Below are positions 59,912 through 64,000 of a stretch of DNA of 64,000 nt, piece by piece. The notes under the pieces were generated by a model. It had not been told where the DNA came from. It worked only from the letters and a program-made list of their open reading frames with translations, and did no database searches. The stretch comes from a bacterium (lineage in GTDB: Bacteria > Zhuqueibacterota > QNDG01 > JAGLOF01): the NCBI GenBank assembly GCA_016934955.1, contig JAFGRY010000040.1:983-64982 (forward strand), given 5' to 3'. The position numbers and the translations under genes were made by a program. Position 1 is the first letter of the stretch; each line of letters begins with the position of its first letter.

Positions 59912-61732
59912 TTAAATTGCTTGTTCTTCACACATCTGTTGATAAAATGAATCTGTAGAATTAAGTTCCTCATGAGTACCGATATTCTTGATTTCACCAT
60001 TATTGAGGATGATAATCTTGTCTGCGGCAATTATTGTAGAAAGTCTGTGGGCGATAACGAATGTTGTTTTGTTGTTTTTATTATTCGTGATAAGATTTTT
60101 AATCGATTTTTCTGTTATTGCGTCCAGGGCAGATGTGGGTTCGTCAAAAATAAGTATATCGGGGTTTTTCAAAAGGACGCGTGCAATTGAAATTCTCTGT
60201 TTCTGGCCAACAGATAATTTAATCCCTCTTTCCCCTATTCGTGTTTCATATCCATTTTCAAAACTGCTGATAAATTCATGGGCCATTGCAGCCTTTGAGC
60301 AAGCGACAACATCTGACTCACTTGCTTCGATTCGGCTATATTTTATATTATTACTTATTGAGTCGTCAAATAAAAATGTTTCTTGTGACACAATCCCTAT
60401 TCTCTGCCTTAAAGAATCAAGACTGATCATGGAAAAATCGATGCCATCGAACAATATTCTACCACTCTGCGGCTGATAAAGGCTTATAATCAGATTAATT
60501 AGAGTACTCTTCCCCGCACCCGTGGGGCCTATGATAGCGATCATTTCACCGGGATGAGCAGTAAAATTAACATTCTTCAACACCGGTGAATGATTATATG
60601 AAAAACAAACATCAGAGAATTGTACATGCCCGTTTAATTTACTTACGTGTATTTTTGTATCATCTTTTTCATCCTCCGGGATAATTGAAAAAAGTGAGAA
60701 TACTCTTTCCAAAGCAGCAAACGAAGATTGCAGAGAGATATTGACCTGTGTCAAAAATTGAGCAGAGCCATATAAATTCGCTAAATATCCATTGAAAGCG
60801 ACAAAACTGCCAATAGTCATATGTCCGGTTATAATTTCAGTTGCGCCATACCAAAGAATGTAGATTGACCCTGCTGAAGAAATTAAGCCAATAACAAATT
60901 GTGAAAATGAGCTTAAGACATTCTGTTCTACACTTGCATCAACAGCATTTTTTAAGGAATCATATATTTTCTTTGTTTCATCTTTTTCAGTCGCAAAGGT
61001 TTTAATTAGTTCGACACCGGAAATTGACTCGTTTATATATTGTGATACCTGTGCCCCTTTTTCCATTGACTTATGCCCAAGTAACCGGGTTTTCTTGCCA
61101 AAGAAACGTACTGAAGTAATAAAAAATGGTAGAATAATTGAGGCAATCAAGGTCAACTTCCAATGTAAAAAAAACATTATTATGATGGTACCAATAAAAA
61201 TAAAACTTTTGGTTAATGCCTGGATAAGTGTACTCGAAAACAGCAACCGTAGTTTGAAGACATCTCCGATAAGACGGGACATTAGATAACCCGTCGACTT
61301 GTTATCAAAAAATGATTTAGGGAACCGCAGCACACGTGTAAATAATTTATGCTGTATAGAAAGGATGATCTTCTGTTCAAATGTAAAGAATATATAATTT
61401 TGAATAAAGGATATAATAAAACCAAAAAAAATTAGAACTGATAATCCGATGATAACCGGAATCAGAAGGTTCCGGTCCCCTAAAATTATAACATTATCAA
61501 TAATGAATTTTACAAAGAGCGGTTTTGGTAAAATTAGAAGTGAACTGATTATTAATAAAATTGTTGCTGTTAAACCGTGTCTCAAATTTGGTCTAATAAA
61601 CGGCCACAACTTACTAAAATATTCAAATTGAAATTTATTACACTCATTAATTTCAACATCTGATGTTTCTTGATATTCTTTCCTGGATATCGGATTTGTA
61701 AAAATTCGCTTAAGTGTTTTAATGATATTCAT
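59912..61732 (-). CDS. ABC exporter, fused permease and ATPase (no C39 peptidase domain)
   Basis: About 6 TM; GPTGAGKS, LSVGQKQR, IFDEPTSALD and IAHRLST. Confidence 0.92.
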   Translation of the reverse strand: MNIIKTLKRIFTNPISRKEYQETSDVEINECNKFQFEYFSKLWPFIRPNLRHGLTATILLIISSLLILPKPLFVKFIIDNVIILGDRNLLIPVIIGLSVLIFFGFIISFIQNYIFFTFEQKIILSIQHKLFTRVLRFPKSFFDNKSTGYLMSRLIGDVFKLRLLFSSTLIQALTKSFIFIGTIIIMFFLHWKLTLIASIILPFFITSVRFFGKKTRLLGHKSMEKGAQVSQYINESISGVELIKTFATEKDETKKIYDSLKNAVDASVEQNVLSSFSQFVIGLISSAGSIYILWYGATEIITGHMTIGSFVAFNGYLANLYGSAQFLTQVNISLQSSFAALERVFSLFSIIPEDEKDDTKIHVSKLNGHVQFSDVCFSYNHSPVLKNVNFTAHPGEMIAIIGPTGAGKSTLINLIISLYQPQSGRILFDGIDFSMISLDSLRQRIGIVSQETFLFDDSISNNIKYSRIEASESDVVACSKAAMAHEFISSFENGYETRIGERGIKLSVGQKQRISIARVLLKNPDILIFDEPTSALDAITEKSIKNLITNNKNNKTTFVIAHRLSTIIAADKIIILNNGEIKNIGTHEELNSTDSFYQQMCEEQAI

Positions 61733-61881
61733 TATATTAATATTTATTATTTAAAAGCCAGCCCCCTCGTCACACAAACAGACAACTGAGAGATTAACTA
61801 TAAATAATTAGCACCAAGAGGGATTTTGACATATTCCCAGTAAATAATGCAAAACAAAACGAGGAGTGCTTGCAATTACTA

Positions 61882-63039
61882 TTATTTAACAATATACTTA
61901 ACAACAGATGCATAATCATCATCGGGCCTGATTAAATCATACACAAAGCCATTCCAAAATTTTGCGTCTGCGGAAAGATATTGCATTCGGAATTTCCCAA
62001 TTTTATCCCCCTGAGGTGAATATACATGATACTCACATGTATTCTTGTTGACCATTCTTCCCCGCAGCATAATATACCCGCATTCATCGATGAACAAAGC
62101 TTCACATACCGGTTTATATTTTGCCAGTGTCAGTTCCCGACGCAACCTCCTTGCCCCAAATTTCTGAATCCAATCGAGATCAAAAAATGATTTCAAATCT
62201 TTTGCGGTCACGGGTGTCCTCTTAATATCAAGAGGGAATTGAATTATTTTCTTCTGGTTTTGATCATAGATCTCACCGAATTCTTCATCTGAATTGATAG
62301 TAACAACCCTGCCATCAGGCTGAACACCCCAAAAAAAGTCACTGGGAAATGGTTTGGCGGCCAAACTGGAGCCTATGACAAATTTAGACTGAATTTCACA
62401 TGAATCGATAGTGGTTAATTCCAACGTTGACAAATTCAGTATATCAAGATACACCATTGAGCTTCGTTCAGTTAATGTACTGGAATTAAAATCATGTCCC
62501 TTTGAACTGATACGCTCGGACACCTCTGTTTCTATCAGCATAGTAGTATCTGTCAAAATAAAAAATTTTTCAATAATACCCCTATGCCGCCGGAACGGTT
62601 TATCAGTCCGAAAATAGGAAAAATTTCTTTCATTTGTATAAAATACAAACCTGTTCGATCGATAATCATAGATGATAATTTCTCCACCTGGACTCATTTT
62701 CATGCAAATGCTGCTCATAATCTCCCCAGGACCTTGCCCATAACCTCCAAAACACCCTATGTACTTCCCTTGTGGATTATAACATTTTATTCGTTTATCA
62801 TCGCTATCGAGCACATAAATTTCACCTACCAAGCTTATAATTAGCTCTGTTGGCTTGAATATAATCGTACTATCACACCCACTATTGCCGAATGATAATA
62901 TAGATTCCAATTCTTGTTTTTGGTATAGAGAAGAAAAAAAACTAGACTTGCCACTCGAAGGTTGTGAATAGCTTTTGGAAAAACAAAATCCTAATAAAAA
63001 AGAAATTATTGATATCAATAATATTTTCGATTTATGCAA
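61882..63039 (-). CDS. Exported 6-bladed beta-propeller (NHL/TolB-like) protein
   Basis: TTG start, signal-like N-terminus; GEIYVLD...IKCYNPQGKYIGCFGGYGQGPGEI; YHVYSPQGDKIG. Confidence 0.75.
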   Translation of the reverse strand: MHKSKILLISIISFLLGFCFSKSYSQPSSGKSSFFSSLYQKQELESILSFGNSGCDSTIIFKPTELIISLVGEIYVLDSDDKRIKCYNPQGKYIGCFGGYGQGPGEIMSSICMKMSPGGEIIIYDYRSNRFVFYTNERNFSYFRTDKPFRRHRGIIEKFFILTDTTMLIETEVSERISSKGHDFNSSTLTERSSMVYLDILNLSTLELTTIDSCEIQSKFVIGSSLAAKPFPSDFFWGVQPDGRVVTINSDEEFGEIYDQNQKKIIQFPLDIKRTPVTAKDLKSFFDLDWIQKFGARRLRRELTLAKYKPVCEALFIDECGYIMLRGRMVNKNTCEYHVYSPQGDKIGKFRMQYLSADAKFWNGFVYDLIRPDDDYASVVKYIVK

Positions 63040-63094
63040 AATAGAAGTCCTTTAATTCAACGTAAACATTTAATATAAATAGAATCATCCCTTC

Positions 63095-63133
63095 AATAAC
63101 AGAGGTTATCTCTAGAAAACAACCTCTGTTATT
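63095..63133 (-). terminator. Stem-loop downstream of the precursor gene (attenuator or mRNA stabiliser)
   Basis: Perfect 13-bp stem AATAACAGAGGTT / AACCTCTGTTATT, 11 nt after the precursor stop. Confidence 0.65.
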
Positions 63134-63144
63134 AAAAGAAAGAA

Positions 63145-63309
63145 TTAGGCTATTAAATTAAAATCTTTAAAATTGTCATTAGCCTCTTTCTCCCACCGGT
63201 CATCCCTGATTGAATTAACATCACCAGAAAGACAAGTGCATTGCACTAAACAGCCACAATCAACAGGGCTTGACTCAAGAGATGCTCCTTTAAAAACATT
63301 TTCGAACAT
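63145..63309 (-). CDS. Putative Cys-rich RiPP precursor peptide (54 aa)
   Basis: Strong RBS AAGGAGGTG before ATG 63309; MFENVFKGASLESSPVDCGCLVQCTCLSGDVNSIRDDRWEKEANDNFKDFNLIA; immediately downstream of the SPASM protein. Confidence 0.75.
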   Translation of the reverse strand: MFENVFKGASLESSPVDCGCLVQCTCLSGDVNSIRDDRWEKEANDNFKDFNLIA

Positions 63310-63370
63310 TTTAATCACCTCCTTTTTAATTAGTATCATCAGCGCTGATGACAATAGTTAAATCAAACAT

Positions 63371-64000
63371 TTAGTCACTATAATATTCACTCACGGTTTT
63401 AAAATAATTTTCATTTTCTTCAGATATTGCACAAAAACGTACAAGTGCGTTAAACCATCTACTTCTTTCCGACTGACATAGCTTTAAAAATTCTGTTTTC
63501 TTATGCAAACTATCATTTGTGAGAAAGTGTGTAAAGCATTTACTACAGAATCTTAAAGCCCAACAATCAATGCAATTTTCATGAAAAATATCATTCCATT
63601 CCTCTAATAATTTATATATTTTTTTATAGTCCAATCCATTTTGAATGTTACCAATTATATATCGACGACTTACTCTTTCACAGGGATAAAAATCCCCATT
63701 GACATCAACATAAAGTTTTCGTCCACCAGGGTTACATTGACCATGACTGATGGCTATTTTCTCCATACGCACCATATTTCTTCTATAAATTTTTATAATA
63801 TCTTTTTCAAATCTATCTCGTTTATACTGACTAATATCGCTATATCTTTGTTCCACAATTGCTTTTCGGTATTCAGAGAAGAGATAATTTTCTTGGGTTA
63901 TTTTATTCTTCTGCTCTTGATGCATATTGAATAATTCATAAAACTGTGTTCCAGTACTCGATGCAAGTGCTAATCTATATTCCATATTTGTGCTTTCAAA
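63371..64000 (-). CDS. Radical SAM/SPASM peptide maturase, C-terminal part (5' end outside window)
   Basis: Frame open to the window edge; CNPGGRKLYVDVNGDFYPCERV...IGNI...CIDCWALRFCSKC...C SPASM cysteine pattern. Confidence 0.85.
   Translation of the reverse strand, partial: FESTNMEYRLALASSTGTQFYELFNMHQEQKNKITQENYLFSEYRKAIVEQRYSDISQYKRDRFEKDIIKIYRRNMVRMEKIAISHGQCNPGGRKLYVDVNGDFYPCERVSRRYIIGNIQNGLDYKKIYKLLEEWNDIFHENCIDCWALRFCSKCFTHFLTNDSLHKKTEFLKLCQSERSRWFNALVRFCAISEENENYFKTVSEYYSD

Follow-up and report, generated by a model that had tools for sequence, protein, structure and literature searches.

The DNA analyzed here, referred to as the window, is a stretch of 64,000 nucleotides that corresponds to positions 983–64982 of contig C10 in the metagenome-assembled genome (G000) of its host, an uncultured sediment bacterium from a small candidate phylum. 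At its end lies an AT-rich accessory island with four genes that probably form a cluster for the biosynthesis of a peptide that is made by ribosomes and modified after translation (RiPP). In the model we favor, a radical S-adenosylmethionine (rSAM) enzyme with a SPASM domain would staple a peptide of 54 amino acids, and an ATP-binding cassette (ABC) transporter would export the product. This model builds on the gene content of the island, the architecture and family placement of the enzyme, the recurrence of the gene set, and the presence of related Cys-containing peptides beside homologous enzymes. In the following, C numbers denote contigs of G000, L numbers denote loci that were fetched for comparison, and P numbers denote protein homologs.

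Gene content of the AT-rich island

The GC content falls from 0.56–0.65 to 0.31–0.41 at ~59.8 kb of the window and remains low to the end of the contig, which runs 1024 bases beyond the window; the host genome as a whole has a GC content of 0.562. Four co-oriented genes on the minus strand fill this stretch. They encode an rSAM/SPASM maturase with an N-terminal domain that resembles a RiPP recognition element (RRE), the candidate precursor peptide, an NHL-like β-propeller, and an ABC exporter. The window holds the 3′ part of the maturase gene (63371–64000), which is open at the window end. An earlier note, made from the letters of the window, had described four co-oriented genes in AT-rich DNA, namely a SPASM-domain C terminus, a Cys-containing open reading frame (ORF) of 54 codons with a strong ribosome-binding site, an exported NHL-like propeller, and a fused ABC exporter. 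Each element of this description was borne out, and the SPASM motifs that it cited recur letter for letter in the translation, which reads CNPGGRKLYVDVNGDFYPCERV followed by C-ID-C-WALRF-C-SK-C, with further Cys residues after it. The intergenic gaps of the island were examined for additional candidate ORFs, and none was convincing.

Structure and family placement of the maturase

The last 1 kb of the contig completes the maturase gene that is truncated by the window and supplies its CNFRCLYC core. The full-length enzyme comprises 491 amino acids (L001:1872-3347), and its gene reaches the equivalent of window position 64846. The CxxxCxxC motif within the core (C111-x3-C115-x2-C118) is conserved without exception in the 73 aligned homologs, and the protein matches the Pfam Radical_SAM model with 51.1 bits (cutoff 29.5). 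The same alignment contains 24 invariant columns, including those of the three core Cys residues and of six Cys residues in the SPASM domain (C371, C389, C425, C428, C434, and C437; spacing Cx2Cx5Cx2C); a seventh SPASM Cys residue, C457, is retained in at least 90% of the sequences. Cutoffs of two SPASM models are passed, TIGR04085 with 39.5 bits (cutoff 27) and Pfam SPASM with 22.1 bits (cutoff 21.5).

An AlphaFold2 (AF2) model of the maturase, built on the homolog alignment, has a predicted local distance difference test (pLDDT) score of 92.1. At its N terminus, three strands (residues 8–12, 17–21, and 26–30) precede three helices (residues 32–37, 46–49, and 56–68); pLDDT values in this module lie between 85 and 98 except in residues 41–50, for which the value is 59. 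Residues 8–68 of the model thereby adopt an RRE-like, PqqD-like topology (β3-α3). No Pfam PqqD match was obtained in the maturase at an E-value of 1, and the RRE assignment therefore derives from structure. The top Foldseek match of the model is CteB (5WHY; E = 3.6e-20), an RRE-bearing thioether synthase whose end-to-end alignment over 486 alignment columns lends support to the RRE assignment. The rSAM core and a predicted RRE-like N terminus are thus both present in the completed protein, as the earlier note had anticipated from the truncated gene.

Comparison with NCBIfam models ranks CcpM first (330.2 bits against a cutoff of 500; residues 7–476 of 491), followed by RumMC (239 bits), GG_samocin/GG-Bacteroidales (176 bits), lachnocin (171 bits), and PapB (160 bits). 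All five of these top-scoring families are maturases of Cys-rich RiPP peptides, and the scores bear out the resemblance to CcpM and GG-Bacteroidales enzymes that had been read from the SPASM motifs. The model for anaerobic sulfatase-maturating enzymes (anSMEs) gives 110.1 bits.

We placed the enzyme in a quick maximum-likelihood tree of 80 maturase rows, which left out L049 (a duplicate) as well as L091, L033, and L083 (in which the ORF is absent, short, or split). The window maturase falls outside a 39-row clade of Bacillota CcpM enzymes with a Shimodaira-Hasegawa-like approximate likelihood ratio test (SH-aLRT) support of 100, and it occupies a long branch adjoining the enzyme from G005, which belongs to the same order. 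Together with the enzyme of L011, it stands beside a clade that includes those of L016, L022, L027, L028, and L034 (SH-aLRT 92). The closest relative among 5.8 billion protein clusters shares 40% identity; the closest homologs (P0002–P0005), which are encoded on short contigs, share 38–40%. A second peptide-maturase-like rSAM protein is encoded elsewhere in the host genome (G000:C24:93475-94788; L097:973-2277), where it reaches a PapB-like score of 133.6 bits and a CcpM-like score of 107 bits, both below cutoff.

The candidate precursor peptide

The small ORF at 63145–63354 encodes 69 amino acids when read from a TTG and 54 amino acids when read from the ATG at 63309, which makes 63145–63309 the candidate precursor gene. 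Seven nucleotides ahead of this ATG lies AAGGAGGTG, a strong Shine-Dalgarno (SD) sequence. The 54-amino acid form has a putative leader that starts with MFENVFKG, a core with the sequence VDCGCLVQCTCLSGD, which fits the pattern CxCxxxCxC (C18-x-C20-x3-C24-x-C26), and an acidic/polar tail of 28 residues. The frame stays open for 69 codons in DNA of ~31% GC, in which by our own arithmetic ~8% of random codons are stops. A long perfect stem-loop (63088–63140, minus strand) directly follows the stop codon; its folding energy is −35.6 kcal/mol over 101 nucleotides (z −8.0), and 0 of 200 shuffled sequences were as stable. This hairpin has no U-run and was not called by a simple terminator scan; it may act as a transcript-stabilizing or attenuating element.

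No Pfam or NCBIfam model matches the window peptide at E-values up to 10, in line with the earlier view of the precursor as unrecognized. The CLI_3235 precursor model TIGR04065 (cutoff 26 bits) likewise gave no match at E-values up to 10 for the window peptide and seven related peptides. As a positive control, the same model matched four of four MKKLGK-type peptides from Bacillota, three of them above cutoff. When all 1630 stop-to-stop frames on the contig were scored with a profile that combines 19 peptides of 14 other loci and excludes the window peptide, the window frame came first (E = 8.4e-4), aligned exactly from its SD-preceded ATG onward. A complex prediction of the maturase with the 54-amino acid peptide gave scores of 0.06 and 0.02, which lie below the mark, and was not used as evidence. 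Genome-wide, a high-GC frame that contains CQCRCSSC (G000:C49:2074-2349, minus strand; E = 0.024) scores slightly above the window peptide; no detected maturase lies in its vicinity, and the match probably arose by chance.

Related peptides beside homologous maturases

Homologous maturase loci were fetched from genomes of many phyla. As the earlier note had supposed for maturase homologs, small ORFs adjoin these enzymes; the ORFs are Cys-rich and contain CxC motifs. The encoded peptides share a common plan in which a leader of the form M-I/L/V-x-E/K-x-F/L, often followed by G, precedes a CxCxC(xC) block ~18–24 residues into the peptide and a polar tail of 25–35 residues. Such peptides are found at L011, L012, L015, L021 (two copies), L025 (two copies), L029, and L033 (four in tandem) and also at L016, L022, L027, L028, L034, L040, L087, and L098. 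The CxCxC block is the sole strongly conserved peptide feature across the whole enzyme family. At L016, L022, L027, L028, L034, and L098, the peptide is encoded downstream of the enzyme, an arrangement like that in the window.

The locus in L033 belongs to a metagenome-assembled genome of Aminicenantes. Four precursor genes of the MIK/CxCxC type stand there in tandem (positions 5996–6704), in an island with a GC content of 0.36–0.44, flanked by DNA of 0.55–0.61. The maturase of this locus (6983–8569) is divided between two ORFs of 167 and 356 amino acids, pointing to a frameshift or a pseudogene. In L012 and L013, small ORFs that separate the propeller and ABC genes had been considered as precursors; they were dropped in favor of a better, MIK-type peptide upstream in L012.

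The propeller and the ABC exporter

The third gene of the island (61882–63039, minus strand, TTG start) encodes a protein of 385 amino acids with an N-terminal hydrophobic helix that resembles a signal sequence. Its family matches are weak: DUF5128 (PF17170) is matched with 18.7 bits, which misses the cutoff of 22.9, and ScyF-NHL is matched with an E-value of 1.8e-7; the protein does not reach the Pfam gathering score of PF17170 or PF01436. The neighbors of the protein in a language-model atlas are 84–99% PF17170. A profile search returned 123,414 matches at E ≤ 0.001, and among the 150 listed most were giant multi-repeat NHL proteins; the profile matches NHL-repeat proteins at positions 45–137. 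The AF2 model (pLDDT 77.6) is all-β with ~24 strands, and Foldseek places NHL domains at the top of its matches (Thin, Brat, and TRIM71; E = 7e-14 to 5e-10) and also finds the Bacteroides structures 3S9J and 4RAA. Sequence neighbors and the modeled fold support the identification of a six-bladed propeller of the NHL/DUF5128 type, from which no catalytic assignment follows.

The nearest homolog of the propeller (P0272) shares 53% identity. A metagenome scan with the propeller led to a single locus, L095, in which positions 7000–9747 encode the closest relative of the window propeller (53% identity) and a very similar ABC N terminus on a low-GC tail beside high-GC DNA. Within G000, the propeller family comprises 25 frames at E < 1e-5, 11 of which have a GC content below 0.45. 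They often occur in tandem inside AT-rich islands; examples lie at C24:5819-12259, C37:22259-30787, C50:53806-57536, C1:78865-82436, and C36:20425-21594. At G000:C1:78359-82439, a unit of a ~175-amino acid membrane protein and a 333-amino acid propeller is present twice in tandem. Between these units lies a gene for a membrane protein of 132 amino acids that by eye resembles the 105-amino acid membrane protein adjoining the precursor in L011 (3332–3649).

The fourth gene (59912–61732, minus strand) encodes a fused transporter of 606 amino acids in which an ABC_membrane domain (residues 56–321) precedes an ABC_tran domain (residues 385–534). No C39 peptidase domain was found in this protein, and its match to TIGR01193 begins at profile position 158. 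The exporter shares 59% identity with its counterparts in L013 and L049, 52% with that in L012, and ~40% with those in L015, L021, L029, and L047. It is thus far better conserved than the maturase, for which identities to the L013 and L012 enzymes are 30–34%. In contrast to the genes for the maturase and the peptide, which carry strong SD sites, the ABC gene has no SD-like sequence ahead of its ATG (window 61733–61760). Where this gene truly starts, or how it is translated, is uncertain.

Recurrence of the gene set

In L012, L013, and L021, too, a maturase gene is followed by one or more propeller genes and then by an ABC exporter gene. Using a hidden Markov model of the propeller, seeded with blastp matches to which the genes of L012 and L013 were added by position, we detected adjoining propellers in 6 of 80 genome contig loci; L033 is the only match outside the seeds. 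Adjacency of maturase and propeller is also seen in L021, L033, L047, L053, and L061. A maturase of this kind is encoded in 6 of the 167 species genomes that represent the host phylum, including 3 of the 31 genomes of the order and neither of the two from the same family. A propeller adjoins the maturase in five of the six phylum genomes that have one. This patchy distribution fits an accessory module that moves horizontally.

Proposed mechanism

We propose that the RRE-like domain of the 491-amino acid enzyme would bind the leader (MFENVFKG...) of the 54-amino acid peptide. S-adenosylmethionine would be cleaved at the cluster held by the CxxxCxxC motif, and two auxiliary clusters of the SPASM domain would help to link C18, C20, C24, and C26 by thioethers to carbons of residues in the C-terminal tail. 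The thioether chemistry is assigned by analogy with the best-matching families, and sactionine-type links would probably be more likely than those of the ranthionine type. The product would be a compact, hairpin-like peptide with multiple rings that the fused ABC transporter would export. Once secreted, the NHL-type propeller may act extracytoplasmically on the peptide or together with it, for example in binding, immunity, or extracellular processing.

Several observations weigh against this model. The enzyme misses the CcpM and RumMC cutoffs, and the crosslinks of SacP23, a bacteriocin from the Bacillota branch, are described as unsolved in passages of PMC10731318. No protease for removal of the leader is present. 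The other 24 propeller frames of G000 are not near a maturase or exporter of this type, and in L095 no maturase lies within 8 kb upstream of the propeller-ABC pair, on a contig that ends inside the ABC gene. Judged from sequence, the similarity of the window peptide to other precursors is weak. A narrower profile of 12 peptides places the window frame second among the 1630 frames (E = 0.013); genome-wide, it ranks second among 113216 frames (E = 0.059). The seed peptides were picked by us for Cys motifs near maturases, which introduces selection bias. In addition, the tail of the window peptide lacks the Y-x-x-G-Y-x-D-G-type motif that is common among its relatives, and it resembles none of their tails. 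For these reasons, the evidence for the peptide is moderate. A single boundary of the island was assembled. Among sequencing runs, only the probable source run contains the whole stretch; ~56% of this run was read, and none of the contig pieces listed spans 59.6–60.1 kb, a result that speaks neither for nor against the junction. Finally, precursors lie upstream of the enzyme in most relatives (L011, L012, L015, L021, L025, L029, and L033), often in two to four copies.

The position of precursors in these relatives favors an alternative in which the cluster is a RiPP system whose substrate is not, or not solely, the 54-amino acid ORF; the genuine precursor genes would then be found past the contig end, upstream of the maturase. 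The ~180 bases assembled upstream of the maturase hold no convincing ORF, and the genome-wide E-value of the window frame is compatible with this alternative. We nevertheless consider it unlikely. The six loci with downstream peptides encode leaders similar to that in the window, and five of them (L016, L022, L027, L028, and L034) are in the clade beside which the window enzyme and that of L011 are grouped together in the tree. Moreover, the 54-amino acid ORF combines its strong SD sequence with the hairpin behind its stop codon and a profile alignment that begins at its ATG.

A second alternative, to which we give an equally low weight, holds that the enzyme modifies the peptide without forming thioethers at Cys. 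It might instead introduce a C-C or C-O crosslink, epimerize residues, or carry out other Cys chemistry, or the CxC motifs might constitute a metal site in the product. Similar SPASM maturases are polyfunctional, and full-length similarity can mispredict function, as passages of PMC10288494 illustrate with StsB, which resembles MftC. The window enzyme scores below every equivalog cutoff, and its branch has no known product. Thioether formation is nonetheless the better-supported proposal: the five top families mature Cys-rich RiPPs, two of them (RumMC and PapB) form Cys thioethers according to their NCBIfam names, CteB, which is closest in fold, synthesizes thioethers, and the CxCxC block alone is strongly conserved among the peptides.

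Origin of the island

The composition junction lies at 59750–59911, between the ABC gene of the island and a gene on the host side that encodes a GH109-like oxidoreductase (GC content ~0.6). The best matches of this oxidoreductase share 84–87% identity with it; matches from named lineages, at 65–68%, belong to metagenome-assembled genomes of Zhuqueibacterota, KSB1, Bacteroidetes, and Aminicenantes. No tRNA was found within window positions 45000–64000. It is conceivable that the AT-rich contig end reflects a mis-join or a binning artifact, in which case the cluster would come from a different organism in the sediment sample, one with a low GC content. The GC step is abrupt (0.60 to 0.33), the island sits at the contig end, its maturase and peptide genes have strong SD sites, and the listed read-derived contigs do not bridge the junction. 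Against this, G000 contains 33 regions of at least 1 kb with a GC content below 0.42, several of which lie deep inside long contigs, and some carry paralogous propellers (e.g., C50 at ~54 kb and C24 at ~10 kb). The homologous clusters of L012 and L013, from the same order or phylum, are low-GC islands with higher-GC DNA on both sides, and a similar GC step occurs beside homologous genes in L033 and L095. In view of the interior low-GC regions with propellers, the two-sided islands in relatives, and the recurrent GC step, we regard a mis-join as quite improbable.

One of the low-GC regions of G000 is a 17-kb island at C37:1001-18500 whose GC content falls to 0.26, and the genome gives the impression of accumulating AT-rich accessory DNA. 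In a run from another study (X4), two contigs of 151 bases match the ABC gene of the island (window 60588–60936) with one or two differences. Almost the same island DNA may thus be present in a second habitat; these two matches are too scant a basis for a conclusion.

The least tenable explanation is that the rSAM/SPASM protein is an anSME that serves the many sulfatases of the genome, with the small ORF being spurious: at least two sulfatase genes lie in the window, and anSME, a SPASM enzyme, is among the fold matches, but the protein scores 110 bits against an anSME cutoff of 349 compared with 330 bits for CcpM, carries an RRE-like N-terminal extension of ~100 residues, and coexists with a separate, genuine anSME (G000:C29:87698-88852; L096:1199-2356) that reaches 412.8 bits with TIGR03942 (cutoff 349.45). 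We accordingly rejected it, and the enzyme does not group with sulfatase maturases, a possibility that the earlier note had raised. The anSME on C29 fits the sulfatase, GH109, and α-galactosidase genes in the window (44162–46120, 53379–54911, 58296–59783, and 42681–43916).

Comparison with known systems

Because all of the respective cutoffs are missed, the window system, as judged by profile scores, falls outside the CcpM, RumMC, SCIFF, and GG-Bacteroidales equivalogs. It represents a divergent branch of a large known superfamily and differs in leader type, accessory genes, and host lineage. The cluster is most likely a distant cousin of the clostridial CcpM/ruminococcin-type bacteriocin systems. 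The earlier note had presented it as a candidate new cluster, a description that holds for the branch, which lies outside the curated families, and not for the superfamily, which is known and whose Bacillota branch includes the bioactive SacP23 (PMC10731318). In the literature that was searched, we found no maturase-propeller-ABC cluster and no leader of this type; the supplements of PMC10288494, which present six new predicted sactipeptide groups in Figures S26–S30, may include the peptide group.

The CcpM/CLI_3235 systems (TIGR04068 and TIGR04065) share the most with the window: they provide the best-matching enzyme family with the same enzyme architecture, an ABC exporter in the cluster, and precursors in which a short leader is followed by a CxCxC(xC) block. 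They differ in that the window enzyme reaches 330 bits rather than the 500-bit cutoff and falls outside the 39-row Bacillota clade, and in that the window leader reads M-F-E-N-V-F-K-G rather than MKKLGKK, on a peptide that TIGR04065 does not match. SacP23, from a CLI_3235/TIGR04068 system of Paenibacillus polymyxa, is described in passages of PMC10731318 as an active bacteriocin against Gram-positive bacteria. The SacP23 cluster as listed there contains TIGR04066 and TIGR04069 partners and a subtilase, whereas the window has none of these and encodes an NHL propeller instead.

RumMC, the maturase of ruminococcin C (NF035951), is a proven Cys-to-Cα thioether synthase that acts on peptides with paired Cys residues. 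It represents the second-best family, with a near full-length match of 239 bits; this score is far under the 720-bit cutoff, the precursor is unrelated, and the cluster context and the host phylum differ. CteB, the thioether maturase of SCIFF peptides (PDB 5WHY and 5WGG), is the best structural match over the RRE, rSAM, and SPASM parts. Identity to CteB is nevertheless 19–20%, the SCIFF model is matched with 136 bits (cutoff 425), and the window precursor is not SCIFF-like.

Near the GG-Bacteroidales systems (TIGR04148), six-bladed propeller genes are reportedly common in Bacteroidales; we found no printed account of this. The GG-Bacteroidales family ranks third for the enzyme (176 bits), under its cutoff of 300 bits; the match lacks the N-terminal 90 residues, and the precursors are of another type. 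A further point of comparison is the StsB/StsA system of Streptomyces. Passages of PMC10288494 describe StsA as a CxCxC...GxGxG peptide in which Cys2, Cys4, and Cys6 pair with Gly15, Gly13, and Gly11 to form a nested Cys-to-Gly sactionine hairpin. The CxC spacing in the window peptide matches this pattern of alternating Cys residues crosslinked to alternating downstream acceptors. In contrast to StsA, the window peptide has no GxGxG acceptor block; StsB is MftC-like with a separate RRE protein, and NF045574 matches only the SPASM part of the window enzyme (E = 0.002).

Significance

Sactipeptides and ranthipeptides are compact, thioether-stapled scaffolds that are stable to proteases and heat, and some are narrow-spectrum antibiotics. 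To our knowledge, nearly all characterized thioether-stapled peptides come from Bacillota and Actinomycetota. A more far-reaching and rather doubtful possibility is that the window peptide belongs to a RiPP family, so far undescribed, with a wide distribution among uncultured phyla other than Bacillota. Members would have a leader of the M-I-x-E-x-F-x-G type and a CxC core folded as a nested thioether hairpin. In one sub-branch, a secreted propeller would be obligatory for extracellular maturation, immunity, or reception, and the genes would travel on AT-rich mobile islands that repeatedly deliver propeller modules into high-GC genomes.

Our analysis indicates that the CcpM-like enzyme family, with substrates of the CxC type, reaches into uncultured sediment lineages. 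There it appears with another leader and another accessory set, an NHL propeller and an ABC exporter without a peptidase. One enzyme and one peptide of 54 amino acids would make a small, expressible target for defining the crosslink pattern of CcpM-type products. The cluster also offers a handle on the function of the large DUF5128 propeller family.

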